A stretch of 36,433 bases of DNA from a virus (taxonomy: Duplodnaviria; Caudoviricetes), in the IMG/VR virus record IMGVR_UViG_3300037847_003348, positions 1 to 36,433 of that record. One strand, written 5' to 3'. Position 1 is the first letter of the stretch. Every line of letters starts with the position of its first letter. The position numbers and the translations under genes are program-made. Below, one piece after another: positions 1 through 36,433 of the stretch. The notes beneath the pieces were generated by a model, which saw only the letters and a program-made list of their open reading frames with translations, made no database searches and was not told the origin of the DNA.

Positions 1-100
1 TTTAGGATTCCTAAATACATCCTTTTATTTTCACTATCATTTTTAGCCATTGCTGTATTGCTATTAAATTCATCTGTGAAGTCTGGCCTACCCTCTATGA
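1..100. repeat. Terminal direct repeat (circular-assembly overlap), copy 1
   Basis: 1-98 is identical to 36334-36431; position 99 g vs 36432 a, position 100 matches. Confidence 0.97.
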
Positions 101-9864: not shown

Positions 9865-11133
9865 CTATAATGTAAAGTCTGCACTTATTGCATATGCACT
9901 AAAATCTTTGATATCTCCTGCACCTCTAAACTTGATGGACATTGTATCTACAATCTCTCCACCGCCTGTTAAAGGTCTTGAAAAAGCAGTTATTGTACCG
10001 TTTGTCAATGCAATACTGCCTGATGTACCAAAGTCTAATCTGATAAGAGGAATAGTTCCTCCTGATTTGTATAAATCATAATACGTTTCATCTTCTGCTG
10101 TCATTGTAAGGTCTAGCGTAATGTCAGCTTTACCTCTTGAAATCTTGTTGTTTTGTAAAAACTTAGTGCCAGTCTTACCAGGAATAGAAACATTGTTGTT
10201 CATAACCTTTAATGAAACTGTTTTAAGATTTTTAAATTCGCTTGTCATGTTAGTTGTTGCAAATATGTCTCTTGCGCTTGTAGCATCATAAATTCCTTTT
10301 AGTAAGTTAACTGCACTGCTAGAACCTCCTGCTGGTGCTGAACAAGACCAACTGCCATCTCCATCAATTGTGCCTGCTAAAGAAGTTAAATTTACAGATG
10401 CAATGTCTATAACTCCGTCTGAACTTATTGAAGTATCTAATCCACTATTGTCAAACAAGCGTACAAACTTTTCACCTACTTCAATGTAACCTTTACTGTG
10501 AGTAGTTGATATATTTATTTTGTTAGTGTCTGCTGCTAAGCCAACGCTTACTGTCAAGTCTGTTGGGATTAGTGGGTCTGCACTAGGACTTGCTGGAAAA
10601 ACAACGCCAGAATAATCTTCTGTATAAAAGTCACCGCCAGTAAAATTACCGTCAGTATCGTCTTCTGTATATTGTGCAGTACACTGCGCATCTAGTGTAA
10701 TAAATCCACCAGTTGTGTAATCTGCTTCTAAAGTAACTTCATTAGGAACAACGCCTGCTACTAATGTAAAATCACCACCTGTCTCTTTTGCTAATATAGC
10801 TAATGAGTCTACAGTGTTTGTCAATTTTAAAGGATAGTTGACAGTGCCACCGCCTTCTGTAAAGCTAGTGCCTCCTATAGCTCTACCCAATAATGCCTGC
10901 CATCCTGTGCCTTGACAAGCTACCTTTATCGGAAGAGATACTGCAATAGGTCCAGCCGCGTGAAATGCATCCGTTGACTGACCAATGCTAGGAACAGGAG
11001 TTATATTTCTCTCTACCGCTCTAGGGTCAAATGTGTCCAATAGACCAAAGTGTGACAAAGCAGAAGCCGCTGGATTCCCATACGCCGCCTCAGCCTCGTA
11101 AGCCGCCTCTACGTTTTGTGTGATTCTTACCAT
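9865..11133 (-). CDS. Major tail tube protein (siphovirus-like)
   Basis: N-terminal EAAYG-P motif; beta-rich; synteny; no sheath gene present. Confidence 0.7.
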   Translation of the reverse strand: MVRITQNVEAAYEAEAAYGNPAASALSHFGLLDTFDPRAVERNITPVPSIGQSTDAFHAAGPIAVSLPIKVACQGTGWQALLGRAIGGTSFTEGGGTVNYPLKLTNTVDSLAILAKETGGDFTLVAGVVPNEVTLEADYTTGGFITLDAQCTAQYTEDDTDGNFTGGDFYTEDYSGVVFPASPSADPLIPTDLTVSVGLAADTNKINISTTHSKGYIEVGEKFVRLFDNSGLDTSISSDGVIDIASVNLTSLAGTIDGDGSWSCSAPAGGSSSAVNLLKGIYDATSARDIFATTNMTSEFKNLKTVSLKVMNNNVSIPGKTGTKFLQNNKISRGKADITLDLTMTAEDETYYDLYKSGGTIPLIRLDFGTSGSIALTNGTITAFSRPLTGGGEIVDTMSIKFRGAGDIKDFSAYAISADFTL

Positions 11134-11135
11134 TT

Positions 11136-11597
11136 TTAATTTACCACCTCATAACTTGTGATTTCACAGTTAAGAACATAACGAAACCAACGTCTGTTTT
11201 TGTCAGACTGGTCTGTGCGACTAAGAAGCTTGATGCTTGCATAATCGCTACTAAGTGCGGTTCCTGCACTCTTTGAATGCGCCGCGTGAATGATGTGTAC
11301 TACACCTTGATACAGATTTCTAAGCCTTGCTCGACTTACTGCTGTTGATATATCCACTGTAATAGTTGCACTGTGTTTGTCAATGCCTTTACCTATTCCT
11401 AAGAACTCGTGATTTGATGCCGTCTCATAGCATCTAATAATGTCTCCACCTTTTAAATTATGTTTACCTATATCCCATGATTCATCTATTGTTGGGGTTG
11501 TACCTACGCCACTTGCTACCGCTGACCAGTTATCACTCAACAAATCAACTACTGCTGATACAGGGTCTGCCAGTGTCGCATAGGTTGCTGCCATCAA
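11136..11597 (-). CDS. Putative tail terminator/neck protein
   Basis: Size, synteny, alpha/beta pattern (ITVDIS...RYVLNCEI). Confidence 0.5.
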   Translation of the reverse strand: MMAATYATLADPVSAVVDLLSDNWSAVASGVGTTPTIDESWDIGKHNLKGGDIIRCYETASNHEFLGIGKGIDKHSATITVDISTAVSRARLRNLYQGVVHIIHAAHSKSAGTALSSDYASIKLLSRTDQSDKNRRWFRYVLNCEITSYEVVN

Positions 11598-12325
11598 TAT
11601 ACGTTATCTAAGGCGGTCCTCCCTACGCCAAATCCACCAACAGCTCTTGCCATTGCCAAACCTCTATCTAATCTGCCACCGTCTTTCAACACCTTCATTG
11701 CCATCTCTTCAAATCGCTGTGAACGTGCTGCGTTGTCCATAGAATCATCGCCCTCTTGCATCAGATTTAAATCGTCATTCATTGCAATCATTGCTGCTGT
11801 AAAATAGATAGTTGCTAGTTTTATATCATCTGGAGTAGAAGCAGTTCTGTATCTGTACGTAACATACGCATCTACGCCTTGTGGGCTGCTGTTTAACATA
11901 TTAAGTGTAGCATAATTATCAATATAGACAATACCACGCTCTGTGTCTACCCACCAATCCTTGTTTACAGAATCTGTAACTGTATTAGTTCCAGTTTTGT
12001 TTGCAACATATTCTACATACGCAGAACCGTCCCAGACATTCAAAGCATCTGTACCGCTTGCTAATCCTATAATCGGATAATGTTCTAGTTGTATTCTACC
12101 CCTAGAGTTTATTACATTAGACCTTACTAATTGTATTCTTGCTCTTTCGTTTGTCACTGTACCTGCTCTTGATGTAGCCCATGCGTGATTTGTTAGCTCA
12201 TCCACACGTGCTTCTGACATCTCAATAAATGAATCTACAACGGTGTTAGTTGGCGTAGTAGAACCGCTAAATGCATCTACCTGAAGAAATTGTGCTACTT
12301 GAGTTGCAGTACAGTAAGCTACCAT
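11594..12325 (-). CDS. Head-tail adaptor (gp6/gp15-like)
   Basis: N-terminal YCT..QV...L and C-terminal VTY.Y....P.DIKLA motifs. Confidence 0.7.
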   Translation of the reverse strand: MVAYCTATQVAQFLQVDAFSGSTTPTNTVVDSFIEMSEARVDELTNHAWATSRAGTVTNERARIQLVRSNVINSRGRIQLEHYPIIGLASGTDALNVWDGSAYVEYVANKTGTNTVTDSVNKDWWVDTERGIVYIDNYATLNMLNSSPQGVDAYVTYRYRTASTPDDIKLATIYFTAAMIAMNDDLNLMQEGDDSMDNAARSQRFEEMAMKVLKDGGRLDRGLAMARAVGGFGVGRTALDNVY

Positions 12326-13083
12326 TATAGTATCCTACTCAATGCTGTATTCATCAACTTTTCGCCTGTAGTTGCTACAACCATACCATTCATGTCGATT
12401 GGTTGTCCTGCCATGTTCCAGCCGATTGCTCCAACTGGTAACGTAAGGTATCCTTGCTGTTGTGCCAATGGTGGAGGTCCTCCGCCATTTGCTGTGTAAA
12501 ACTGTTCTCCATTAGCTAGTGTATCTATCTGTGGAGGTGGTAATTGCCAAGCTTGAGGTTGGGCGGCTGCTGTACCGACTCCGAACCATGTCCACGGTTT
12601 GAACATACTTGCGCCGCCCTGCATAGGCATCTGCTGCTGCATATATGGGTTTGGCATCATTGGTTGTTGAGTCACGGCAGGAGCTTGTTGGAGTTGGCCA
12701 TTATCACCGTAAGGATTTTGCCAGTTTAGGACAGAATGATGGGCATTGTCCTCGGAGGCCCACTCCTCATGCAAGGTGAGACGAGCATTAAGCTCCTCCG
12801 CAGCCTCGTCACCATACATAGTTCTAGGATGCCAGTCTATCTGTGTGTTATAGACTTTCTTTAAAAATTCCATGTTGTCTGCTAAATCTGTAGGAACTTG
12901 TACGTCTGTTTCCTTACATAGTGCTTCTAACATCTCTACAGAGTTCTTAATGACTGGATACAAATATTGTACCATTCTCATTGTTGTATTCTCTGCTGCC
13001 TTTGCATCGTAATCTGGATGCTGTATCTTATCTACCGCTACAGGGTTTAAGTATCCTGATGGGCTTCCTGCATATCCGCTCAT
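12325..13083 (-). CDS. Gln/Pro/Met-rich protein of unknown function (~252 aa)
   Basis: ORF track (TTG 13095); ATG 13083 with GGAGG is the likelier start; low-complexity C-terminal half. Confidence 0.8.
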   Translation of the reverse strand: MSGYAGSPSGYLNPVAVDKIQHPDYDAKAAENTTMRMVQYLYPVIKNSVEMLEALCKETDVQVPTDLADNMEFLKKVYNTQIDWHPRTMYGDEAAEELNARLTLHEEWASEDNAHHSVLNWQNPYGDNGQLQQAPAVTQQPMMPNPYMQQQMPMQGGASMFKPWTWFGVGTAAAQPQAWQLPPPQIDTLANGEQFYTANGGGPPPLAQQQGYLTLPVGAIGWNMAGQPIDMNGMVVATTGEKLMNTALSRIL

Positions 13084-13154
13084 AATTTCCTCCAATATAT
13101 GTTTTGCTTTACACCGTCACAGTGTAATGTAAATCTAAGTAATGTAGGCTTCAT
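13080..13154 (-). CDS. 24-aa coupling mini-ORF
   Basis: MKPTLLRFTLHCDGVKQNIYWRKL; ATGA overlaps at both ends. Confidence 0.4.
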   Translation of the reverse strand: MKPTLLRFTLHCDGVKQNIYWRKL

Positions 13155-13513
13155 AGTCCAAACCTCCTATTCTGACGGGTTGACAAAGCCGAGAGATACT
13201 CATCGTAGTCGCGCTGGTGTAATTTACAGAATCCGCCTCCTGTAGTCATACCACAATAAGGACACTCGTCTTTGCCATGTTTCCGCCTTAACCCCCACCA
13301 CTTTCGTGATAGCCTTTTATGTCTCATAGTGAGACGTTTCACATACAAGTCCAGTTCATCATCAGACATTGCTTCCGCTGTTGGCATCATCTGTTGTTGT
13401 ACTGGTTGTCTTGTAAGAACATTAGGGGCTGGAGCCACCTCTCGTGCTGGTTCCTCAGGTTGTGTGTGTTGAGGTTTGCGTACTAGGGTCGTCATCTGTG
13501 GTGGTCCAGCCAT
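13151..13513 (-). CDS. Gln/Pro-rich protein with CxxC...CxxH Zn finger
   Basis: CPYCG...FCKLH; GGAGG RBS. Confidence 0.8.
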   Translation of the reverse strand: MAGPPQMTTLVRKPQHTQPEEPAREVAPAPNVLTRQPVQQQMMPTAEAMSDDELDLYVKRLTMRHKRLSRKWWGLRRKHGKDECPYCGMTTGGGFCKLHQRDYDEYLSALSTRQNRRFGL

Positions 13514-13587
13514 CAGTCTAAGTCCTCCTTATGGTCTCTATATGCTTCCATAAGTTTTAACATATCTCTAAGCCATCGCATTTTCAT
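13513..13587 (-). CDS. 24-aa amphipathic mini-ORF
   Basis: MKMRWLRDMLKLMEAYRDHKEDLD; overlaps both neighbours. Confidence 0.45.
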   Translation of the reverse strand: MKMRWLRDMLKLMEAYRDHKEDLD

Positions 13588-13967
13588 AGTCCACCCTTTC
13601 TCATCATTTGTGCTGTCCTTGTCGCAGCTTGTCCTACCTGTACTTCAGGACTGACAAAGGCTTTGACTACCAATGCTTTGATTGTTGATAATATTACACT
13701 TACAGCTAAGACAAACATTAGGAATCCATTGTATAACCAAGCAACTCCCCATATTGCCATACCGTATTCTGTAACTACTGTATCATAATAATAACCTACA
13801 TAAAGTCCGATTCCACCAAATGCAAGGCCTAAACCCATTATCCATACACATCTTTTGAACCAAACCCATTCTATGTATCTACAGAACTCTACGTCCTGTT
13901 GGCCTCCTGCACCCATTGTGCTAGGATACCTGCCAGTGCTAAACAACATATTTCTTATAAATTTCAT
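13584..13967 (-). CDS. Two-TM membrane protein
   Basis: Two long hydrophobic segments; GGTGA RBS. Confidence 0.8.
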   Translation of the reverse strand: MKFIRNMLFSTGRYPSTMGAGGQQDVEFCRYIEWVWFKRCVWIMGLGLAFGGIGLYVGYYYDTVVTEYGMAIWGVAWLYNGFLMFVLAVSVILSTIKALVVKAFVSPEVQVGQAATRTAQMMRKGGL

Positions 13968-14788
13968 GGTCTCACCACATCTACGTATGCATTCTTTTGC
14001 GAATCCATCTTTTCGTACATATCACGCTTAAACTCCCTAGAGAGTTGATAAGCGACCTCGTATCCGATTGGTTCCGCTCCATCAGGCATAGGTATCCATT
14101 TTGGATGATACGTATATATACTTATCCGTCTAAAGTTAGGCTTGAAGTCTAATTTGTCATCGTGAAACTCAATGTAGGCTTTCTGTGCAAAACCTTCCTC
14201 GTCTACTAATGATTCTAAACTGTGCTGAGAAAGTACGGCATTAACCGTATTTTCTATGTTTTTAACAGGAACCATTTTAGAAATAGAAACAGGTGTCTCC
14301 CATCTGAATATGTCTGAGGGTGTCAAATTCTCTACAACTGAATGAAGCAATTCATCACAGGAGACAATTGCCTCTGACATATCAAACGTTTTAAGCCTTA
14401 CGCCTTTTAGACTAAAATCTTTAACTTTTCCTTTAATTTGTCCTGCTTCGTTAGATATTTTTATCCAATCATCTATAGCAAACTCTGTTTTGTATGCTAC
14501 AGTCAAAAAGGATAATGCTCCATTAACAGGACTGTACTGGGAAAATGCAGCGTAAGTAAGTGCTGAAACGCCTACTATATACTCGGTCCGTGCCAATAAC
14601 CCACTATACATCAGAAGCCCTACTCCAAAGACTAAGGCTCCTAAAACTCCAAATACTTGCGCTGCTGCTTTTCCTTGTAAACTTCTAATTTTGTAATCAG
14701 TAAATGCTGACTTTTTTGCTCTAGCTACCGCTCCAGAAACTCCTAACGCTACTGCGATAAACCATGCAAAAACTAGACCCTCATCCAC
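13964..14788 (-). CDS. mscS: MscS-family mechanosensitive channel-like protein
   Basis: Three TM segments, then F...DWIKI...GKVKDFSLKGVRLKTFD...IVS...L...VENLT (MscS beta domain) and an alpha/beta C-terminal domain. Confidence 0.75.
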   Translation of the reverse strand: MDEGLVFAWFIAVALGVSGAVARAKKSAFTDYKIRSLQGKAAAQVFGVLGALVFGVGLLMYSGLLARTEYIVGVSALTYAAFSQYSPVNGALSFLTVAYKTEFAIDDWIKISNEAGQIKGKVKDFSLKGVRLKTFDMSEAIVSCDELLHSVVENLTPSDIFRWETPVSISKMVPVKNIENTVNAVLSQHSLESLVDEEGFAQKAYIEFHDDKLDFKPNFRRISIYTYHPKWIPMPDGAEPIGYEVAYQLSREFKRDMYEKMDSQKNAYVDVVRP

Positions 14789-15269
14789 TGTTTTTTCCCT
14801 TCTTTGCTATCTTGTCAATATGCGGACCTTGTTCCGCTTCTAACAACTCACCAGTGTTTGGATTAATATATCCACCAGCCTGTGCTGGCATAGGCATTGG
14901 TTGTTGCTGTTGTTGATATTGTTGGTATGGAATCATGTTAGGCGGTATGGGTTGTCCCACATGACCGTCACGGTTCATGTCCCAGCCTGTTCTGTTTTCC
15001 ATGTAGTTCATTGCATTACTGAACATTCCTTGGTTTTGATAGCCCGAAGGTTTTTTCTTTCTCTCTGCAAATTCTTCTAAATCTTGCGAATCTGCTATTG
15101 TGGAGAGTATGGTATATGTGAAAGCACCACTTACCGAACCAAACCAAAGAGCGTCATTGTATGCCATGCCGCCCACATACATTAAAGTGAATGCGTTAGC
15201 TATGAAAACTAACAAGGCACTCAACCTGTTGTATGATTGTTTTATTTTGTGCTTAATCGTTTCTTCCAT
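14781..15269 (-). CDS. Two-TM membrane protein with DxNxDG motif and Gln/Pro-rich tail
   Basis: Two hydrophobic helices; DMNRDGHVG EF-hand-like loop; poly-Q/P region. Confidence 0.8.
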   Translation of the reverse strand: MEETIKHKIKQSYNRLSALLVFIANAFTLMYVGGMAYNDALWFGSVSGAFTYTILSTIADSQDLEEFAERKKKPSGYQNQGMFSNAMNYMENRTGWDMNRDGHVGQPIPPNMIPYQQYQQQQQPMPMPAQAGGYINPNTGELLEAEQGPHIDKIAKKGKNSG

Positions 15270-15594
15270 TCTCGATTTCCTCTTTTGCTCTTAGCGTCAC
15301 AAACCGCGCAGTGTAATAATTCCACGGCCTGTTTGCTTTAGTCTTTATACCTGCATCGTTTAAATACTTTGCTATACCGCCATATGTATAGCCATCTTCT
15401 CTTAATTGTACCATTTTTTTACAAACTAACCATTCTACTTTTGTAGCTCCAAACCGTATAGAGCGATAAGGTCGCTTTCTAGCTGTTTTAACAGCACTGA
15501 AATTACTATCTGATGAAGAACCCATGCCGTACCATATCGTGCCTTTAAACGCCCTTTGAGGGCCTTTCATACCTATTTCTTCCTTAGGCCTCAT
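15253..15594 (-). CDS. Standalone serine-recombinase 'Recombinase' DNA-binding domain protein
   Basis: LREDGYTYGGIAKYLNDAGIKTKANRPW matches the PF07508-type pattern; no catalytic resolvase domain. Confidence 0.65.
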   Translation of the reverse strand: MRPKEEIGMKGPQRAFKGTIWYGMGSSSDSNFSAVKTARKRPYRSIRFGATKVEWLVCKKMVQLREDGYTYGGIAKYLNDAGIKTKANRPWNYYTARFVTLRAKEEIENGRND

Positions 15595-18500
15595 TTAGTC
15601 ATTAACTCTAGTGCGTTATCTAGTGCTGGCTTTGTAAGTCTCAAATCATCATCCCCTGCCTCATCTGCATCCAATAACTGCTGAGTGTCTAAGGTGTGAA
15701 AGAATTGTCTTATGTTAGCTCCTGCCGCTGAAGCATCACATCTAATTACTGAACCTATTACAGTAATATCTCCGTTAGTTTGCATTGTGCAATCTTGTAA
15801 AGTTCCTACTAATTCATGATTTCCATCTGCTTGAACATATAATGCAACGGGTTTTGTACTGTCAAATCCTTGTATAATACTATTACCTGATAATAATGTA
15901 CTGTCTAAAAATTGGAATGTTCTACCGCCTGATGCTGTTGCTTTAAGTGTTGAGTTTCTTAAATCAATAGTACCGTCTGTTTTCATATCTAGTATGTAAC
16001 AGTTAATTGTATTACCATTAGCATTGAAAGTATTTCCTCCCGATACTTCTAATTCTGCTGTAATTGTAAGGTTTCCTAGACTCAAAGTCTCAATAGTACT
16101 TGAAGAAGTAATAAACAATCTTTGAATTGTTAAATCTTTATCTGCTGAACTTGATGATGGAAAATTCCTTATGCCACTTTGACTATTTTGAAATATAAAG
16201 AATTTAAACACATCTGCAAAAGCTATTGCACCTTTACCTGCTGCAACTTTAACATTACCAAAAGTTCTGCCTATTTGTATATACTCGTTACTCGTAGATG
16301 CTAATTTACCTGATTCCTGTTCAAGCGTTCCAAATACTACTATGCCGCCATTATTGCCATTTATTTCATTTAAAGTTATAGTATTAGAATCTCCGCCTGT
16401 AGCTATTGTAAGACTGCTTAAGTTTAAGTCGCCAGTATAGTTTATTTTCTTAGAAGTGCCTGTCATCTTTAGCGTAGAAGTGCCATAGGTAAATGTTCCT
16501 GCTCCTGCCCAAGCATCTGTAACTGTAGCTGGACTGCCTCCATTGTAATCATAAATAACACCATTTAAATTTGAATTAGAACAAGAAAGTGCAGAACCTG
16601 TGCCTTCATTAGCACCCCAACGACCTACTAAACCAGTAGAAGAAGAAGTTGCTAAAGTATTAAAATGTGTAAGACTTGTTCCTGCATCTTTAAACATATC
16701 TTCTCTTATTTGTGCTGCTGTTTTAGCTGCTGCAAACACACGAATTTCATCCATTTCTCCGTTTAAAAAATGCTCATTTGAGTATCTTGTGCCAAACCGT
16801 AATGGTATTGTTCCGCTATATATTGCTCCACTTCCTGTTTCTTGAGCTTCTAATTTACCATCAATATAAAGTGAATGCACCCCTGTGCTACCCTCATAGA
16901 CTAATGCAACGTGATGCCATTTACCATCATTTACTGTTGAAGTTCCTCGTAATTCATTAGTAGTTCCACTTGTAAATATTTTGCCTTTTAGGGAGTTAGT
17001 TCCACTATCTATGTGTAAGTAAAATACATCTTGACCATTTCTTCTGTCAAATAAATATTGATGTGCATCATTAGTGGATGTCTTAAACCAACACTCTAAA
17101 GTTATCTTGTTATTGTTAAATGGAAAATCTAAATCTGCATGGTCTGCTACTTCAGCATATTCTGTATTAGAACTATCTAAACTTAAACAACTTGCGCCAA
17201 GCAGACCACCACTGGTAGTAAAATCTCCTGCTACTGTAAGTTCTGATGAACCTGCACTTAACTTTGCTCCAGTTGCAATTTGCAAATTACCATCAGTGCT
17301 TAAATCAAAATTATTTGTTAAAAATCCATCTCCTGAAGTATCTGTTGATGCAACAATAATGTCTCCAGTAGGCACTCTAGTTGAAGAAGTCCACGCTACT
17401 GCATTAAGAAATGCTGCATTGTTTGGGCCATTGTTAAACACAACTCTACCCATTCTTTTTGAATTACTACCAGGTGCTTTGTTAAACTCAAATCTTTGAT
17501 TGCCGTCTGATTGATTAAAAACTAAAGTTCCTTGTGCAAAACTTAAGTTTGATAAACCAGATGATAAACCAAAACAAGAACTTCCACCACCATTAAGAAA
17601 AGTAATTCCACTTGTTAAAGTTAAAGAACCTGTAGAATTATTAGCATTTATTGAATTAATATTATGCAGTCCTGAACCTCCTGTAAAAGTTCCTTCAACT
17701 GTTAATGTTCCTGATGTTGTAATATCGTGTGTTCCACAATCTAAAGTATATCCACTACTTACTGTTACGGCATCAAACTCACAATCTCCTGTAAGTGTTA
17801 TTTTTTCTGATGCAGAACCTGAACCTGTTACAAGTGCAATCTGATAATCTAAATTAGCTAACTTCCAATCTGCTGCGGAATTTGCATTCCAATCCCAATC
17901 AGTTCCCGTACATACCGCAGGATACAAACTCGATGCTCCTTGTACTGTTGGCTTATTAGTGCCTGAATTGTCTACACTTAACGTACCATTGTTGACTATA
18001 GAGCCTGCTGCTGTTGTAGTACCGATAGTAAGTGTAACTGCATTAGAACTGTTGTTTAATTTAAAATGACCTGTACTAATCGTAAGTGCGTTTTCTACAG
18101 TTGTATCTCTGTAAATCTGTGTAAAAGCTCCCCCACTGTAAAGAAAGTTGTGGAATGTAATTGGTGCAGTTCCAGAGGTGTTTATCAGAGTATTATCTCC
18201 GCTGACTGACTCGAATGTTCCGCTGTTGTGTGTAAATGTGCCAGAGTTCTGAAAGTTGCGTACTAAAGATACTGTGCCTCTTGGTGCTGAAAACGTACCG
18301 TTAGCTGCTATAACAAGGTCAAAGTCAAGGTCAAGAGTGCCGTTACTCCAAGTTGCTCCAGTTCTTATACCATCTGAATCTGTGCCTGTTCCATAATCCT
18401 CAACATAAGGTTCGCCTGTCGGATGTAATCCAGCATCATCCATTTTCCACCAATGTTCTGGAGTTTGAGGATATGTTCCTGAATAAAGCGAGGCTACCTG

Positions 18501-19802
18501 CTCTGCACTTAAAGCATAATCAAAAAATTTTGAATCTCGAATTTTACCGTGAAAATCATCTATTGTGCCTCTAAGTCCGTGTTGGTCAAAAGAAGGGTCT
18601 CCAACTATATCATTAGATGTCAAAGGCTGCTCTACACCATCAATATATATTTTACCATTTGAATCACCATTAAGAGTTATTGCTATATGGTGCCAATTTG
18701 TATCTGCTATTTGTGCAGACGTTTTTAAATCATTTGGATAATCTCGCATCACTACTTCTCCATTAGTTTTTATTTGAAGCCAGTGTTGATTTTGGTCAGC
18801 AGCTTGCCCAAGAATAGTATCTATATTTCCAGTAGCGTTAGCTTTCTTTACCCATACAGCATAAGTAGCTCCGTTATGGTCCATAGTAAAACTTGTGCTT
18901 GATATTTTATCAGATGAACCGTCTAAATCCAAAGAAGTAAGTGACAAACCCTCTACCTTTCCCTGTGTTACTGTAAACGTTCCATCTGTCGTTGTACTAT
19001 TATCATATACATCTACACTGTAAGCGTCATAATCCCAGTAAGTACCTGAGAAATTAGTCAAAGTTCCTTGATTTACTGTGCCTGATTCATCTACAACAAA
19101 TCCTTCTCCAGGACTACCGCCTGTTGCAGTCTCGTTATTTAGTTTCCAATATCCTTTTAGATTTGTAGTACCTGCTCCTAATGAACTATCAGTATTTATT
19201 TTACTTGCAAGTAATTGTATGTTTGCATCTGTAAGTACTGCATTGTAGATTCTAGCATCTGCCATCTGACCTGTCCAAGTGTGTGAACCATCTTGGTATG
19301 CTCCTAAGTTTACCTCTATCGCATTATTAGAGTGTATTGCTGTAAGTGTGCCACTGTTATCTGTGTTTGTAACTAATACACCGTTAACGTAAAGCTTCAT
19401 AACTCCGCCATCAAAAGAAGCTGCATAGTGATTCCAATGTTCTAATAGTCCAGTCATACTGTGAGTAATCTCTATTGATGAATTACCACTGTTATATCCT
19501 ACACCAAATCTTAAGGTACTACCGTGAATATATAATCTAAACAATCTTTGCCCGTTACTTCCGTTATACTTAGCGATTAAGTGTTCTCTGTCACCATCAG
19601 CAGTAGTTGCATTATCGTTTTTAGCCCAACAAGCTAAAGTAAAATGGTCAGTAAAATCATGGTCAGTATCAGTGCCACATTGAACAAAATCATCAGTACC
19701 GTCAAACATCAAAGATTTGTCAAGATTTACATTAACGTTTGCTGCTCCAAGATTTCCTTCTATTATTCCGCCCGTGCCTAAAAAATTAAGATTTATTGCC
19801 AT
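15591..19802 (-). CDS. Virion fibre/adhesin with three LamG (ConA-like) domains and beta-helical repeats (1403 aa)
   Basis: Three FDG...W.H.A......LY.DG....G...E/D.R.Y/F modules; G/T/S/N-rich repeats. Confidence 0.8.
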   Translation of the reverse strand: MAINLNFLGTGGIIEGNLGAANVNVNLDKSLMFDGTDDFVQCGTDTDHDFTDHFTLACWAKNDNATTADGDREHLIAKYNGSNGQRLFRLYIHGSTLRFGVGYNSGNSSIEITHSMTGLLEHWNHYAASFDGGVMKLYVNGVLVTNTDNSGTLTAIHSNNAIEVNLGAYQDGSHTWTGQMADARIYNAVLTDANIQLLASKINTDSSLGAGTTNLKGYWKLNNETATGGSPGEGFVVDESGTVNQGTLTNFSGTYWDYDAYSVDVYDNSTTTDGTFTVTQGKVEGLSLTSLDLDGSSDKISSTSFTMDHNGATYAVWVKKANATGNIDTILGQAADQNQHWLQIKTNGEVVMRDYPNDLKTSAQIADTNWHHIAITLNGDSNGKIYIDGVEQPLTSNDIVGDPSFDQHGLRGTIDDFHGKIRDSKFFDYALSAEQVASLYSGTYPQTPEHWWKMDDAGLHPTGEPYVEDYGTGTDSDGIRTGATWSNGTLDLDFDLVIAANGTFSAPRGTVSLVRNFQNSGTFTHNSGTFESVSGDNTLINTSGTAPITFHNFLYSGGAFTQIYRDTTVENALTISTGHFKLNNSSNAVTLTIGTTTAAGSIVNNGTLSVDNSGTNKPTVQGASSLYPAVCTGTDWDWNANSAADWKLANLDYQIALVTGSGSASEKITLTGDCEFDAVTVSSGYTLDCGTHDITTSGTLTVEGTFTGGSGLHNINSINANNSTGSLTLTSGITFLNGGGSSCFGLSSGLSNLSFAQGTLVFNQSDGNQRFEFNKAPGSNSKRMGRVVFNNGPNNAAFLNAVAWTSSTRVPTGDIIVASTDTSGDGFLTNNFDLSTDGNLQIATGAKLSAGSSELTVAGDFTTSGGLLGASCLSLDSSNTEYAEVADHADLDFPFNNNKITLECWFKTSTNDAHQYLFDRRNGQDVFYLHIDSGTNSLKGKIFTSGTTNELRGTSTVNDGKWHHVALVYEGSTGVHSLYIDGKLEAQETGSGAIYSGTIPLRFGTRYSNEHFLNGEMDEIRVFAAAKTAAQIREDMFKDAGTSLTHFNTLATSSSTGLVGRWGANEGTGSALSCSNSNLNGVIYDYNGGSPATVTDAWAGAGTFTYGTSTLKMTGTSKKINYTGDLNLSSLTIATGGDSNTITLNEINGNNGGIVVFGTLEQESGKLASTSNEYIQIGRTFGNVKVAAGKGAIAFADVFKFFIFQNSQSGIRNFPSSSSADKDLTIQRLFITSSSTIETLSLGNLTITAELEVSGGNTFNANGNTINCYILDMKTDGTIDLRNSTLKATASGGRTFQFLDSTLLSGNSIIQGFDSTKPVALYVQADGNHELVGTLQDCTMQTNGDITVIGSVIRCDASAAGANIRQFFHTLDTQQLLDADEAGDDDLRLTKPALDNALELMTK

Positions 19803-24652: not shown

Positions 24653-24672
24653 GTATATAGACTGAGAAAAGG

Positions 24673-24704
24673 GTATATAAGTAATTCAATCTGTCCGGAA
24701 ACTA
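24673..24704 (-). promoter_or_regulatory. Late promoter: TAGTTTCCGGA-N13-TTATATAC
   Basis: Same motif and spacing as 26677-26708. Confidence 0.7.
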
Positions 24705-26657
24705 CGATTTTGACCAAGAAGGTTTTTTGCCTCTTCTTAATCTTTCTTTAGGTTTCCAACCTGCATCTGCCAAAGCTCTACGTAGTTTTTGACCCGATTG
24801 GTCTCTTACTCTACTAGATGTCATTCTAGGACCTCTACCTGAATACTTACCGGGATTTCTAAATATTTCTGCGCAAAATGCTTCTGGGTCTCTTACACTT
24901 TGAAGTCCCTCATAATTTCTAAGCTTTAATGCATTTCTACGACAATCAGTCATAAACGCTCTCATACCTCTTTGACTTCTACCTGTCCTAGGTTGTTTAA
25001 TTATATCAAGTATTTCATCTAAGTGTTCATTGCTTTTCGCAAGTATATCTGACACATTCTTTGCACTCCACATTTTACAAGACCAATACCTTGCTTTATG
25101 TTTAGGTCCGGGATTAGCACAGTTGTGTCTAGCTCTAAAGTTCCTACGCCTTTCTGGGTCATCACGCTTTATATCCAAGTTAGGGTCACCAAACTTAACC
25201 TGTACAATGTTGCCTTTGTCATTCTTTACATATACACCAAACTTCTTGTTCTCACCAGAAAGCCTGCGTGGTTTGTTTAATTCTACCTTCTTACCCTGAT
25301 ACTCTGCCTTTACTATTCTACTGTCTTCATGGTCTTCTATAAGTCCAAACTCAAATGCCTCAACAGCTCCGGGATGTGGCTTATAGTCGCCCTCCATAAG
25401 CATAGGACCATTCAAGGTCTGCATCCAATGATAACCTTTAGGTGCTTTTACCTTTAGTGTTTTATCTTCTGCTTTTTTTGTAGACTTGGGATGACCTGCG
25501 GGCAACAAATCGTAATCTGTGGTGTACTTAGGATTTGACGGCCTACCTGAACTTAGTAGCTTTAAGAATGCCTTGACACGACCTAATGCCCACTGGTCTC
25601 GGCTACGAACGCTAGGACGATGACTGGTTGAAAATGCACCAGCACCTCTACGGAACACTGCTTTCAATGCTCCCATGTTAGCCTTTTTCCCTTTAGCGTT
25701 ACCAACTTTCTTGTTATGTTTGTCTCGATAACCTTCTAATGTTTTAATATTCGCAGCACTTAATTTTATTCCACCACGCTCTCCACTAGCTGTACCCTTT
25801 GGATTTCTAGTACTACCTGTCCTTCTTTCACTTGGCTTTGCAGGCGTCTGTGGATGTCGGCTTTTCTTTTGAGGAACACAGTTAGGTGTTTTCTTACCGC
25901 CCTCATACTTGAATCCTACCATTTCATATCCTGCCCAGCATGGCTTTTTCTTTAGAACTTCCAATATTCCGTCAAGCTCTTCATTCATTTTACTAAATCT
26001 TCTAGCTTGTATTGCGCGTTCTTGATTTACTGCACCTGCTCTTGTCTTGTGACATCCTAGTAACCTTCTATCTTTCTTAGCATATAGACAATACTCGCCA
26101 TTCTTGCGTTCTATTATCTTTTCTACCATGCCTTCTATTTCATCTAGTGTTACTTGTTTTGTCACCTTTACAGGTTCTTCTGATTTTGCTGCTGCTACTG
26201 CAGTTACAGTAGCTTCTGGGTTAGCAGGCTTGTTACCAACCCATGACACGGACCAAAGAGACAACTCGGAGATGTTGTTGTGGCAGACGTCTCCTTCGCA
26301 AACCTTCTCTTGCTTTTCAGCTTCACCCCTAATAGATGAACCGCCCTTGTCACCGTATATCTTCATTTCTTCCCACACTCTATCATGCATAGGAAGCCTG
26401 TTGTGTATGCCTACACGTATTTTGACTTTACCGTCTTTTACCTTATATGCAAGAGGCAACCCTACTGGCATCTCCTCATGCTTGTATGAATAAACACCAT
26501 ATTTCATATAGAAATCCATGGCTTCTTTAATTGTCTCTGTTTTAATTTTATCGTTCTGTTTATCGACGATAGGCGAGCTAATAAACGTTTCTAAAACTCT
26601 GTCATTGTACCAGTCTGGTCGATAGACCTTCCAGTTAGTATTATTAGCGTCTGCCAC
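24702..26657 (-). CDS. Prohead protease fused to multiple small basic domains (651 aa)
   Basis: N-terminal DKQND...H...PVG...SIRG...SVS.V..PANPEA protease motifs; about 480-aa basic multi-domain tail. Confidence 0.85.
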   Translation of the reverse strand: MADANNTNWKVYRPDWYNDRVLETFISSPIVDKQNDKIKTETIKEAMDFYMKYGVYSYKHEEMPVGLPLAYKVKDGKVKIRVGIHNRLPMHDRVWEEMKIYGDKGGSSIRGEAEKQEKVCEGDVCHNNISELSLWSVSWVGNKPANPEATVTAVAAAKSEEPVKVTKQVTLDEIEGMVEKIIERKNGEYCLYAKKDRRLLGCHKTRAGAVNQERAIQARRFSKMNEELDGILEVLKKKPCWAGYEMVGFKYEGGKKTPNCVPQKKSRHPQTPAKPSERRTGSTRNPKGTASGERGGIKLSAANIKTLEGYRDKHNKKVGNAKGKKANMGALKAVFRRGAGAFSTSHRPSVRSRDQWALGRVKAFLKLLSSGRPSNPKYTTDYDLLPAGHPKSTKKAEDKTLKVKAPKGYHWMQTLNGPMLMEGDYKPHPGAVEAFEFGLIEDHEDSRIVKAEYQGKKVELNKPRRLSGENKKFGVYVKNDKGNIVQVKFGDPNLDIKRDDPERRRNFRARHNCANPGPKHKARYWSCKMWSAKNVSDILAKSNEHLDEILDIIKQPRTGRSQRGMRAFMTDCRRNALKLRNYEGLQSVRDPEAFCAEIFRNPGKYSGRGPRMTSSRVRDQSGQKLRRALADAGWKPKERLRRGKKPSWSKS

Positions 26658-26676
26658 AGTCTAACATCAGATATGT

Positions 26677-26708
26677 GTATATAAATAAAACGAACTTTCC
26701 GGAAACTA
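26677..26708 (-). promoter_or_regulatory. Late promoter: TAGTTTCCGGA-N13-TTATATAC
   Basis: Palindrome TTTCCGGAAA at 26696-26705; TATA at 26677-26684. Confidence 0.7.
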
Positions 26709-27218
26709 AGTTTTAGGCATTGCTTTTGCAACACGTATTACTTCGCCTTCTAAAGCAGGAAGTCCTGCACGTAAAGCATTTCTCATAAAAAAAGTACCTT
26801 CTTTAAATGGCTGATTTCTATATATTCCTCTAGCAAGCTCAAAAAAGGGGTCGCTTGAGTTAGTGCTTGAATAAACATATGCATATTCTACAATTCCCGG
26901 ATTACCCTCGTGAGTTTTTGAAGGTGCAGATGGCATTGGAGACGGACCCCCATACTCCATAATACCTGCTGCTGGATGGTTTGATGACAAACTCAAATAA
27001 ACATTGTTTCCTCTTTTGTAAACTCTTGGTTTTATGCTCTTACCTAGCTTGCCTTTACGTTTTGTAAATTTTGTATATACTCTTTTTTCAGCATCATCTC
27101 TTATAGCTGCTGCTACATTTTTTGCAGCTTTGTCTAAAATTGAAACCCAATTTTTTTCTTTTTTATAAAAATTAATCGTCCGTGTAAATTTCTTACCGCC
27201 AGTTACTTTTACTCTCAT
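26706..27218 (-). CDS. HK97 gp10-like protein
   Basis: G.L..SI ... MEYG ... FMR.A motifs. Confidence 0.55.
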   Translation of the reverse strand: MRVKVTGGKKFTRTINFYKKEKNWVSILDKAAKNVAAAIRDDAEKRVYTKFTKRKGKLGKSIKPRVYKRGNNVYLSLSSNHPAAGIMEYGGPSPMPSAPSKTHEGNPGIVEYAYVYSSTNSSDPFFELARGIYRNQPFKEGTFFMRNALRAGLPALEGEVIRVAKAMPKT

Positions 27219-29408: not shown

Positions 29409-30875
29409 CTATATGTAATCCCAACCTACAAACGCAAGACCCTTTTTGTTCATACCTTTAATCGCTAACTCACACATCCACAACGCCATCACAGCATCAG
29501 GAGTGTGACCCTCTAGCCTTCCGTTCTTACCATAAACCAAACGACTCAAGCCATCCGTCAACTTTCTAGGTCCCGGTCTGCTTGCTTCTCTTATTTCTTT
29601 TTCCCACGGAACCGAGTATCTCTCCTTTTCAAACTCCAAGGCCAACCCCGGTATACCCACATCGTGGCTGTGCTTTTCTCTGCCCGTGTTGTGTCCTTCG
29701 ACTGGTAAACCCGCCAAGTCCGACGCACTGTGGACAACCAATCTCTGATACCCATTCGATTCTATCATAATCGTTTCTGGATTAAAACGTTTCGCAAGCT
29801 CTCTGATTTTCAACACCTGTGTCTCTAACCAACCCGAACCCTGTGCCATTACCTTGCCTGTCCAACTATACAGTATCCTACGATGCTCTGTTTTCTTATT
29901 ATAAGCCACAATACAGTAGCTTGTCTCATCATTTTGACTGTTCATACCCACAGCCAAGTCAACACCCATAACGACGCTTATATCGTCCGTGTAATCTGGA
30001 AGACCCATATCTAAATTCTCATCCAAACAACGCTGAAGCACCTCATACGGTATAACGGCAGACTCTGGGTCCAACGGATTTAACATATACTCAGACTCAA
30101 ACGCTCGACTTCCCATTGTCTCCTTTTCTTTGTCTAACCGTTCTTGATTCCAATACTCAGGCCATCTAGGCGTACCGTCCTCCAAAAGTGCTGGATGTCG
30201 TATCACATTCCACTCCGAACTCTCAGATACCCAGTCCGTTATGTCTCCAACACGTTTTTGTGTACCTACAAGCAACATCTTAGATTCTGGAAGTCGCATT
30301 GGCATCACAACTCTTTGTACATAATGGATTACCTTATCATCAGTCAAATTAGGAAACTCCTGCAAAACGTCATCCAGAATAATCATGTGTACGTGAGGAC
30401 CCTCAAGTGCTTTTCCTATACTTGCAGCAGCAACCCTACTACCATTGTTGAATCTTTTTGCACTCTTTCGTATTGTCACCTTCTTATCATCTGACTTTTC
30501 TAAGAACGCACTAAGCCTCCAAGACCTCTTACAAAGTTCCTCAAACTGCTCTAACTTGTCCCAAGCCTGTTCCAAGGTCGCAGATATATACAAAGCCCTA
30601 AAGTTTGGCTGCTTGTGCATCATATAAGCCAATACACACAAACCCCATGTCGTTTTCAAGTGACCTCTTGCACAAATTATAGAAGCAAACTCACCTTTGT
30701 TAAAATTCTCTTCCCACTGTTTGTGCATCTCACCTAACGGAACATAAGTCCCCGGCTCTTGGTCCATATAGTCCGACATTACCTCATCTATGAACTCATT
30801 CAAAGTCAATGGCTGGTCATTCATTATCTCCAATGCCCCTGCGATTGCCTGCGTGATGTGTTTACTATTGTCCAT
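29409..30875 (-). CDS. terL: Terminase large subunit
   Basis: Walker A ARGHLKTT, Walker B IILDD, nuclease GVDLA, IESN and D.VMALW. Confidence 0.95.
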   Translation of the reverse strand: MDNSKHITQAIAGALEIMNDQPLTLNEFIDEVMSDYMDQEPGTYVPLGEMHKQWEENFNKGEFASIICARGHLKTTWGLCVLAYMMHKQPNFRALYISATLEQAWDKLEQFEELCKRSWRLSAFLEKSDDKKVTIRKSAKRFNNGSRVAAASIGKALEGPHVHMIILDDVLQEFPNLTDDKVIHYVQRVVMPMRLPESKMLLVGTQKRVGDITDWVSESSEWNVIRHPALLEDGTPRWPEYWNQERLDKEKETMGSRAFESEYMLNPLDPESAVIPYEVLQRCLDENLDMGLPDYTDDISVVMGVDLAVGMNSQNDETSYCIVAYNKKTEHRRILYSWTGKVMAQGSGWLETQVLKIRELAKRFNPETIMIESNGYQRLVVHSASDLAGLPVEGHNTGREKHSHDVGIPGLALEFEKERYSVPWEKEIREASRPGPRKLTDGLSRLVYGKNGRLEGHTPDAVMALWMCELAIKGMNKKGLAFVGWDYI

Positions 30876-32182: not shown

Positions 32183-32319
32183 TTTAACAACGCTAAACAT
32201 CGCTTACAATTTATGTACTTCGGATGCATCTCCTTCATCTTACGAAACTCCTGCGGCGTCGCCTCATGACCACACATTGTCATGTGATGTACTTCACTAG
32301 GTGCGTGTTTTTTTCTCAT
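32179..32319 (-). CDS. 46-aa Zn-binding microprotein (H...TMCG...NCxxC), probable paralog of 31840-32004
   Basis: MRKKHAPSEVHHMTMCGHE...INCKRCLALLK. Confidence 0.65.
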   Translation of the reverse strand: MRKKHAPSEVHHMTMCGHEATPQEFRKMKEMHPKYINCKRCLALLK

Positions 32320-32417
32320 AAGTTCTTCTTCAACTGCTCCCTATATGTATTAACGCCAAGCCAAAAACCTGCGATAAACGCCACTACCATCAAAAACAAC
32401 GTAGCCAAACTACTCAT
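32316..32417 (-). CDS. 33-aa single-TM microprotein
   Basis: MSSLATLFLMVVAFIAGFWLGVNTYREQLKKNL. Confidence 0.65.
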   Translation of the reverse strand: MSSLATLFLMVVAFIAGFWLGVNTYREQLKKNL

Positions 32418-32499
32418 TGCGACACTCCTTGCAAAAACCACCATGGTCCTCTACATCCACGGGTGTCACTACCATACCACAAGCCTTACACCTCCACAT
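32410..32499 (-). CDS. 29-aa Zn-finger microprotein
   Basis: MWRCKACG...FCKECRNE. Confidence 0.65.
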   Translation of the reverse strand: MWRCKACGMVVTPVDVEDHGGFCKECRNE

Positions 32500-35519: not shown

Positions 35520-36433
35520 CTAATCCTTACTAAATTTGACCCTCCTATGCTTTGGAATATATACACCACTTCCAACTATTGTGGGTTTAATCCATTGGTA
35601 TTTACCGACCTTTCCATCAGGTCTGGTAATGATTGGGACGTGTTTGTATTTCCTGTGCCTATACTTGCGCCAAAACGCTATTCTATCGTGTTTAGTGACA
35701 CCCATAGCTCCAGAGTCAACAGCCTCTTTGTATTTAGCAAAGTATTCTTTGGTTTTATTGTCACAAGTAATTAAGGTCGATGATGGTATTGGAATATAGC
35801 CACTTTTCTTTCTTTTCTTAAATGAATTTGTCCTATTTCTCTCAATTAAAACTTTCTCTTTCAATGTTAAAAAACAAACCAAATTTATAAGATAATTTTT
35901 CACTACTGTTGTGTGTGTTTCATTTTTAATAAAAGAAGTATCCGCATCTACTCCGTATATCTCTTTTATCTCGTTGTGAGTAAATATGATAAATGAATTA
36001 TTTATGTAGTAATTACCATTATCAAAATCAATCCTATAATTTACTTCATATCCATCTATTGAATGCTCTATACTTGATTCTCTTGTCGCGTTTGTTCCAC
36101 TAGGCAAATATTTTAACTCTGGGCCATCGTCGCCTATCTCCATTCTTATTGATTTTTTACAAACCAACATTCCACTGATAATAGAATTTTCATGCTTGAT
36201 TGAAGTACTAATAAACATTCTATCAAAGGGCATTTGGAAGTCGTTGGATTGACTAACATCTAGCGGTTTAGTCCTTTCTAAATGTTCACTCAAATCCTTA
36301 TCAACCTCAAAGTATTTGGCCTGTTCTAATCTTTTTAGGATTCCTAAATACATCCTTTTATTTTCACTATCATTTTTAGCCATTGCTGTATTGCTATTAA
36401 ATTCATCTGTGAAGTCTGGCCTACCCTCTATAA
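35520..36433 (-). CDS. 3' part of the ~345-aa hypothetical protein (H.R..FWR...WIKP..VG C-terminal motif)
   Basis: Frame is open to the window end and joins 1-224; C-terminal motif recalled from uncharacterised viral proteins. Confidence 0.85.
   Translation of the reverse strand, partial: IEGRPDFTDEFNSNTAMAKNDSENKRMYLGILKRLEQAKYFEVDKDLSEHLERTKPLDVSQSNDFQMPFDRMFISTSIKHENSIISGMLVCKKSIRMEIGDDGPELKYLPSGTNATRESSIEHSIDGYEVNYRIDFDNGNYYINNSFIIFTHNEIKEIYGVDADTSFIKNETHTTVVKNYLINLVCFLTLKEKVLIERNRTNSFKKRKKSGYIPIPSSTLITCDNKTKEYFAKYKEAVDSGAMGVTKHDRIAFWRKYRHRKYKHVPIITRPDGKVGKYQWIKPTIVGSGVYIPKHRRVKFSKD
36334..36433. repeat. Terminal direct repeat, copy 2
   Basis: Matches 1-100 with one mismatch. Confidence 0.97.

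Follow-up and report, generated by a model that had tools for sequence, protein, structure and literature searches.

Tailed viruses of archaea lyse their hosts fully, and the players in that lysis have been called ‘completely uncharacterized’ (PMC10791045). The closest described lysis systems are holin–endolysin cassettes, such as the putative holin and amidase of Adrikavirales (PMC11706807), which combine a late position, two-helix membrane proteins with charged cytoplasmic ends and exchange of the cassette. Mechanosensitive channel genes are also known from viruses: Aureococcus anophagefferens virus, a giant algal virus, has an MscS gene distant from cellular ones (PMC6163359), and MscL genes occur in estuarine caudoviruses (PMC13288924). 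Our study concerns a gene block in a virus of the Caudoviricetes, IMG/VR record IMGVR_UViG_3300037847_003348, whose full 36,433 nucleotides (nt) we call the window. Between a fibre gene and a head–tail adaptor-position gene, this virus carries five core genes (B, C, D, F and H; Table 1) that encode an MscS-family protein (C), two membrane hairpins (B and D) and two soluble proteins (F and H). The block resembles holin–endolysin cassettes in its late position, its two-helix proteins and its exchange, but it has no detected endolysin or holin family, includes a member with the MscS fold and shows very high rather than low conservation. The algal virus MscS, in contrast, is a lone gene, 13% identical to C. 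With a probability of roughly 0.4, we read B-C-D-F-H as a lysis cassette that needs no endolysin: a pore derived from MscS, its gate altered, would work with two holin-shaped proteins in what is likely an archaeal host.

The unit consists of the five core genes. In C-anchored loci (the best 80 of 142 metagenome loci, some of them near-duplicates of one virus), B lies 5′ of C in all 73 with enough DNA, and D lies 3′ of C in 64 of 66, the remaining two holding a partial D farther along. Further downstream come F (42/42), H (28/28) and the adaptor (18/18); upstream of the block stands the fibre gene (44/44), and A is present in 32 of 44 loci. Other anchors were also used: H is directly upstream of the adaptor in 32 of 33 adaptor-anchored loci, the 33rd having no upstream DNA, and C is present in 18 of 18 D-anchored loci. 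Among 21 of 80 capsid-anchored loci that were checked (contigs >15 kb), seven carry C, including all four that are at least 90% complete, two of these four records having first been found through C. No other gene set follows the fibre gene among the capsid-anchored loci with more than 3.5 kb downstream. Since H recurs in the adaptor-anchored loci, and C in the near-complete capsid-anchored records and in the D-anchored loci, sporadic cargo is unlikely.

A sequence-only reading of the window had described this region as eight coupled open reading frames (ORFs) forming one module. All eight lie on the minus strand where it placed them, and start/stop overlaps of 1–17 nt do occur at 9 of 9 junctions from the fibre gene to the adaptor. 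As evidence for a module, however, these overlaps carry little weight, because coupling is genome-wide: outside the block 16 of 27 junctions overlap too, and 20 of 27 lie within 10 nt. What stands is a smaller unit, with B, C, D, F and H in constant order wherever related contigs reach and neither absent nor scrambled in relatives; A and the mini-ORFs E and G are optional.

C is an MscS-family protein, as that reading had proposed. It passes the PF00924 profile (34.9 bits against a cut-off of 20.2), and the beta (Sm-like) middle domain of this family is also found in a 51%-identical relative (33.8 bits). An AlphaFold2 model of C, with a mean predicted local distance difference test score (pLDDT) of 75.5, has three membrane helices, a beta domain and a cage domain; 34 of the 66 sequences in its alignment were cellular MscS matches, though retrieved by a viral-only profile. 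Foldseek places E. coli MscS first (E 6e-10, probability 1.0), with all matches listed being MscS or MSL, and the top six VIA matches are all of the MscS family (Z 10.2–11.5). Among viral structures, only the Aureococcus anophagefferens virus MscS matches at E≤0.001. A PDB sequence search with C, alone or as an alignment, gives nothing significant, so the relation to MscS is visible only by Pfam, profile and fold, and since the PN(X)9N motif is not kept, membership in the family rests on the fold.

The viral-only profile of C, run against 1.84 billion representatives, returned 104 proteins: the C family and fragments of it, the divergent P0127 (7e-18), P0128 (2e-12) and P0177 (3e-4), and cellular-type MscS from 2e-10 on. 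Small-conductance mechanosensitive channel is the source name of two of the ten matches looked up, and databases already label C automatically in this way. C is 13–21% identical to 34 aligned cellular matches. In a tree of 66 core regions, the viral C family and the three divergent proteins form one clade with support 98 on a stem of 1.54 substitutions per site, to which long-branch effects may contribute. C defines a new, deeply branching MscS subfamily that belongs to the core gene set of a virus family common in the ocean, with 181 protein clusters and 142 metagenome matches. A search with an alignment of the divergent relatives added only P0357, 70% identical to P0128; three of these four proteins share an SP kink and group with C in the tree. 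Genomic loci were not found for P0127, P0128 or P0177.

No match to C, D or H was found among GenBank phages, none to C among plasmids, and no close copy of C among GTDB contigs, in a pattern-seeded scan that misses distant relatives. Recent capture of C from a host was rejected on these searches. That the whole block is a recently captured host passenger locus is likewise hardly credible: nothing was found that speaks for it, the 1.84 billion representatives, the GTDB pattern scan and the plasmids gave no close cellular relative and no contiguous host locus, and the block always stands between viral fibre (44/44) and adaptor (18/18) genes.

Like E. coli MscS and MSL proteins (PF00924; PDB 6vyk, 2oau, 7uw5 and 7n5d), C has three membrane helices followed by beta and alpha/beta cage domains, and the E. 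coli MscS positions G101, L105, F130 and N177 are kept. It departs from MscS in its low structural identity (approximately 9–16%), a polar and bulky pore helix without Gly at G104, the SP kink, replacement of PN by (S/G)C and of GD by DD, and an extra loop in the cage; unlike cellular MscS, it belongs to a viral core gene set and is accompanied by four partner genes that fall in no known family. The substitutions of DDW and SC for GD and PN, which had been singled out in this one sequence, extend across the family: D106-D107-W108 and C144 occur in 122 of 122 viral C sequences, whereas GD and PN prevail among the cellular matches. In C, the PN(X)9N motif as defined for MscS (PMC3386975), which is conserved in the family without being universal, reads (S/G)C(X)9N, with the last Asn invariant (20/20). 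The pore helix is near-invariant over the 122 viral sequences and holds T78 (121/122), Y79, S83 and Y85 (122/122 each) and Q84; its hydropathy averages 0.83, whereas the 34 cellular matches have a median of 1.75 and a minimum of 0.73.

At the seal, the two best registers agree in aligning L77 with MscS L105, a position that is Leu in 116 of the 122 sequences and Phe in the other 6. The position of MscS L109 is taken by Ala81 or, with a one-residue insertion at 79–81, by Phe82, and the two registers tie (27.7 and 27.5). Loss of the lower seal ring was dropped as a firm reading after this tie. The remodelled pore and the motif changes predict altered gating of C, not necessarily a leak.

These features bear on whether C might be an ordinary tension-gated release channel, an osmotic safety valve that would prevent early bursting and so delay lysis, in which B, D, F and H would serve as regulators or anchors. 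In favour of this, C retains all three domains of the MscS fold under strong constraint (ratio of nonsynonymous to synonymous substitution rates, dN/dS, 0.058), one register preserves both seal rings, and MscL genes have been reported in caudoviruses along salinity gradients (PMC13288924). On the other side, C is universal and sits on a long stem, it has no cellular relative above approximately 21% identity, and this assignment leaves the virus without a clear lysis gene. Accessory genes for osmotic control, moreover, tend to occur sporadically and to resemble host copies closely, and we regard this role as doubtful.

B and D are indeed two-helix membrane proteins, both with hydrophobic hairpins. 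They also have the shape of class II holins, being small, with two membrane helices and charged cytoplasmic ends as judged from hydropathy and charge, the topology following from the positive-inside rule. B is near-invariant at residues 12–65 and ends in a variable Q/P/M tail; a key role for the DxNxDG loop that had been highlighted in it is not supported, as the loop sits in an insertion missing from 55 of the 87 B sequences that cover it. D has near-invariant soluble ends and a basic C-terminus. B has no match of note in Pfam, PHROGs, NCBIfam or PADLOC, and among Atlas neighbours of D at 0.9 or more none has a Pfam family. B, C and D are the only multi-pass membrane proteins predicted among 53 ORFs, the other hydrophobic matches being a 42-residue single-helix ORF and the tape-measure-position gene. 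The zinc finger of F is borne out by an invariant CxxC-x8-CxxH; the only PADLOC match over the block is to F and is weak and short. H most likely starts at the ATG at 13083, behind GGAGG, and comprises a helical N-terminal domain, a Q/P/M linker, an invariant Trp-rich motif and a conserved Gly/Pro-rich C-terminal domain; its structure model is too poor for a search (pLDDT 36.7), and the Atlas has no usable match. The Q/P-rich composition noted earlier is real, with Q, P and M together making up 21–24% of B, F and H.

The near-invariance of the soluble ends of D and of the motifs in H and F is expected of fixed interfaces, and together with the Q/P/M linkers in three proteins it could point to a non-conducting membrane scaffold, in which the cage of C with B, D, F and H would form a platform (an assembly site, a division block or a site of membrane remodelling) that binds a conserved host partner. 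There are precedents, in that the lethal effect of MSL10 needs no conductance and FtsZ is a reported binding partner of the MscS C-terminus (PMC6261518), and the altered PN motif may inactivate gating. Yet the pore helix itself is near-invariant over the 122 sequences and the host partner is only hypothetical, making such a scaffold unlikely.

No other part of these genomes is as conserved as the block, and purifying selection on it is strong. Among nine relatives compared all against all, with the window excluded, median identities are 91% for B, 84% for C, 91% for D, 90% for F and 88% for H, as against 61% for terminase, 62% for portal, 51% for capsid and 55% for tail tube. Seven of the nine had been found through C, hence a cross-check in 30 adaptor-anchored loci, in which the median is 90% for H, 64% for the adaptor and 55% for the tube; H identity exceeds that of the adaptor in 431 of 435 (non-independent) pairs. 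dN/dS is 0.06–0.10 for the five core genes and 0.18–0.26 for adaptor, terminator and tube. Four-fold degenerate sites are also closer in the block (63–77%) than in terminase, portal and capsid (46–52%), which indicates recent exchange as well as selection. Trees of the packaging genes, the tail genes, C and B-D-F-H each reject the other three (approximately unbiased test, p<0.003; eight genomes, G005 and G008 being left out because their blocks are incomplete); the block moves between divergent virion backbones. Contigs end inside H in 14 of 33 adaptor-anchored loci, as expected of a near-identical segment shared by co-occurring viruses, and the high conservation of the block thus explains why assemblies of these viruses often break within it. 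Identity of C tracks that of tail tube and terminator (Spearman 0.72 and 0.63; 21 non-independent pairs), and in the same pairs the identities of B, D and H track each other (0.57–0.67), probably driven largely by one genome, G007.

Lysis fits these properties best, because the block is universal, probably late, membrane-directed and moves between virion backbones. Lysis cassettes are known to move in this way, and archaea have no murein. No recognisable holin or endolysin was found by family matching to Pfam and PHROGs, in agreement with the first reading; murein and pseudomurein hydrolases were sought among the 33 ORFs scanned, with about 20 smaller ORFs left out. In the mechanism that we propose, the block would be expressed late with the tail genes. 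C would assemble into a ring of the MscS type, and its altered gate would leak or open under low tension. B and D would gather in clusters within the membrane and sustain or set off the lesion, as timers or co-lesions, while H and F would act on the cytoplasmic face. The influx of ions and water would abolish the membrane potential, and the cell, having no murein that needs digesting, would burst. We count the polar pore helix of C in favour of this scheme, given that polar changes at or upstream of the MscS seal yield lethal, easier-gating channels (PMC3386975). A fuller version, in which the block is an endolysin-free egress machine of widespread marine archaeal tailed viruses, with a domesticated MscS as lethal pore, two holin-shaped timers and two soluble regulators in an exchangeable cassette, is possible but more tentative.

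Several observations weigh against lysis, which is favoured only by position, universality and elimination. An MscS pore ordinarily acts as a release valve and keeps the cell from bursting. Both seal rings may be intact, given the tie between the Ala81 and Phe82 registers, and the altered PN(X)9N motif points away from a leaky pore, as changes of N167 in E. coli MscS cause loss of function and fast inactivation (PMC3386975). B, C and D are unusually conserved, whereas holins usually evolve fast (PMC11706807). Neither B nor D matches a holin family significantly in Pfam, PHROGs or NCBIfam, the best hit being PF07332 at E 4.6 for one relative of D. Finally, the 42-residue single-helix gene could be the holin instead. 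It lies upstream of the terminase and is found in 8 of 9 relatives at 43–93% identity; its PHROG hints are not significant.

Late expression, assumed from the outset, is supported by gene order. In the window the block is coupled behind the fibre gene via A, whose recombinase-type DNA-binding domain scores above the family cut-off as the sequence-only reading had it. In layouts with and without A, H overlaps or abuts the adaptor and runs into the tail genes, and no run of six or more T occurs on the window minus strand from 16769 to 7985; the block is therefore probably expressed late with the tail genes. In loci that lack A, a TATA-like box starts 25–28 nt before the ATG of B in 20 of 20 unique spacers (24 loci), compared with 3.8% in shuffles and 0 of 30 unique upstream regions with A, a count that overstates independence because the pattern was defined with the sequences already in view and the spacers share kinship. 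In these relatives the block would start its own transcript, and the box would drive the tail genes as well. In none of the 75 loci (24 without A, 51 with A) do gene A and the promoter before B occur together; a DNA-binding gene stands where the promoter would be. The idea of a hidden promoter within the first 25 codons of A was rejected, since the TTTAAA there lacks conservation and relatives have coding sequence in that region. Pieces of B, C, D, F and H appear in contigs from marine RNA libraries (five runs, four studies), and some of these contigs also cover capsid and fibre genes; DNA may be present in them and no start at B is seen, and they show neither transcription nor timing of the block.

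A promoter of its own in relatives without A would also suit a role in superinfection exclusion or lysis inhibition, in which the small membrane proteins would keep the DNA of related viruses out of the cell or detect the tails of such viruses. The block is shared among viruses that probably infect one host group, and the weak tracking of the tail tube by C could be taken in the same sense. Exclusion genes, however, are usually early, accessory and variable, whereas this block is core and coupled to tail genes, so that we consider such a role improbable.

The window is one complete tailed-virus genome of 36.3 kb (CheckV completeness 100%) with a 98-bp terminal repeat; the record is nonetheless classed as linear. 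Its minus strand encodes terminase, portal, protease, capsid, two fibre genes and tail genes. Family scans, including Pfam and PHROGs, found no polymerase, helicase or primase in the genome, and no tRNA genes were found in the window. Among 50,697 GenBank phage records, the capsid matches only the haloviruses HCTV-1, -5 and -16 and HVTV-1 and -2 (eight records, approximately 30% identity); portal and adaptor likewise match HCTV-1. The capsid clade to which this virus belongs consists mostly of marine viruses of archaea (PMC8651126). TATA boxes lie 26–30 nt 5′ of the start codons of the protease, the scaffold and a 121-residue gene, as in most relatives with the region recovered. A TATA box followed by a leaderless start is the archaeal promoter layout, and this layout and the halovirus-like capsid together make an archaeal host likely for this virus family. 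A scan for sigma-70 promoters stayed at chance level (15 found, 17.2 expected). The pattern-seeded scan of GTDB contigs, run with the capsid and C alignments, turned up no provirus and no contig of a metagenome-assembled genome that would point to a host, be it Poseidoniales, as expected of Magrovirales, or another group.

Known families of similar affinity differ from this virus. Magrovirales have genomes of approximately 100 kb with a PolB replisome module (PMC5434244); with one third of that size and no polymerase detected, the window is not filed with them. Druskaviridae (HCTV-1 and HVTV-1), the only GenBank phages matched by the capsid, also have genomes of approximately 100 kb. HCTV-1 shares the capsid, portal and adaptor genes, but no such block lies near its capsid gene or between capsid and adaptor. 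This difference counts against virion-borne entry machinery, in which some block proteins would be packaged and help DNA across the host membrane, as does the need of three integral membrane proteins for co-translational insertion. Only the position among head–tail genes and a very short tape-measure-position gene (242 residues) speak for it, and we hold it to be very improbable.

Other features of the block and genome are listed in Table 1. The gaps between D and F and between F and H hold arrays of zero to a few mini-ORFs of approximately 20–70 residues and several interchangeable types, some with CxxC. They often end in similar junctions of ribosome site and overlapping stop and start, like small cassettes swapped at a shared junction (loci L010, L013, L181, L206 and L208). 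E and G are replaced or absent in relatives, E is also multiplied, and mini-ORFs are wholly missing between D and F in L003 and between F and H in L016. At the protease and scaffold promoters of the window and of G005, G006 and G010, a near-palindrome, TTTCCGGA(A/C)A, lies approximately 45–50 nt upstream, followed by a TATA box 26–28 nt before the leaderless start, and is a candidate binding site for a late activator; other relatives carry different motifs at this position. The protease-position gene has a long basic extension that is only partly common to relatives. Terminases of relatives fall into discrete identity classes (approximately 87–98%, 70% and 57–59%) that combine freely with capsid and tail types; the terminase-anchored loci, with 300-nt flanks, were used for these classes only. 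The early region is highly variable overall, and its 287-residue basic ORF has no family and no match in nine related records.

Table 1. Genes of the block, their neighbours and other features of the window (aa, amino acids)
Feature	Position	Strand	Description	Conservation and matches
Upstream neighbour	15591..19802	-	Laminin-G fibre gene, 1403 aa	Overlaps A by 4 nt; 44/44 loci
A	15253..15594	-	Basic 113-aa protein with recombinase-type DNA-binding domain; optional	PF07508, 29.8 bits (cut-off 21.1); dN/dS 0.15
B (core)	14781..15269	-	162-aa two-helix membrane hairpin	No family; 73/73; dN/dS 0.10
C (core)	13964..14788	-	274-aa MscS-family protein: TM1-TM2-TM3a/3b, beta domain, alpha/beta cage domain	PF00924; dN/dS 0.058
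D (core)	13584..13967	-	127-aa two-helix membrane hairpin, class II holin-like shape	No family; 64/66; dN/dS 0.07
E	13513..13587	-	Amphipathic 24-aa mini-ORF, accessory; hydrophobic moment 0.86	dN/dS 0.12 (15 sequences)
F (core)	13151..13513	-	Soluble 120-aa protein: Q/P-rich start, basic Trp-bearing helix, zinc finger	42/42; dN/dS 0.10
G	13080..13154	-	24-aa mini-ORF, accessory	dN/dS 0.15 (12 sequences)
H (core)	12325..13083	-	Soluble acidic protein, 252 aa	No family; 28/28 C loci, 32/33 adaptor loci; dN/dS 0.08
Downstream neighbour	11594..12325	-	Head–tail adaptor-position gene	phrog_17057; 31% to HCTV-1 gene 117; overlaps H by 1 nt
Tail tube and terminator	9865..11594			
Protease and scaffold promoters	26660..26710; 24655..24705	-	Near-palindrome and TATA box	
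Protease-position gene	24702..26657	-	651 aa, net charge +55	
Terminase	29409..30875	-		
Single-helix membrane ORF	32316..32444	-	42 aa	
Basic ORF	35520..36383	-	287 aa	
Terminal repeat	1..98; 36334..36431		98 bp	

Literature searches on MscS in magroviruses, phages or archaeal viruses, from whose scope subscription papers were excluded, gave only the algal virus MscS and the MscL genes of estuarine caudoviruses; neither MscS in a tailed virus of archaea nor this gene block was found reported. Mechanosensitive channels were not found mentioned in the available portions of PMC11706807 (annotation tables probably not covered), PMC10791045, PMC5332604, PMC13465236, PMC8651126, PMC5474096, PMC5434244 and PMC10160649. 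The five-gene block and its properties were thus not found described, and we found no known counterpart.

The stronger conservation of the block than of terminase and capsid points to an interface that is fixed, either with the host or among several proteins. Lysis by tailed archaeal viruses is an open question (PMC10791045), for which the block offers five universal and strongly selected candidate genes. Whatever its role, the C family offers natural changes at the pore helix and PN motif of the MscS fold. If the block is indeed a lysis cassette, MscS would have been turned from a safety valve into a lethal pore in archaeal virus egress.

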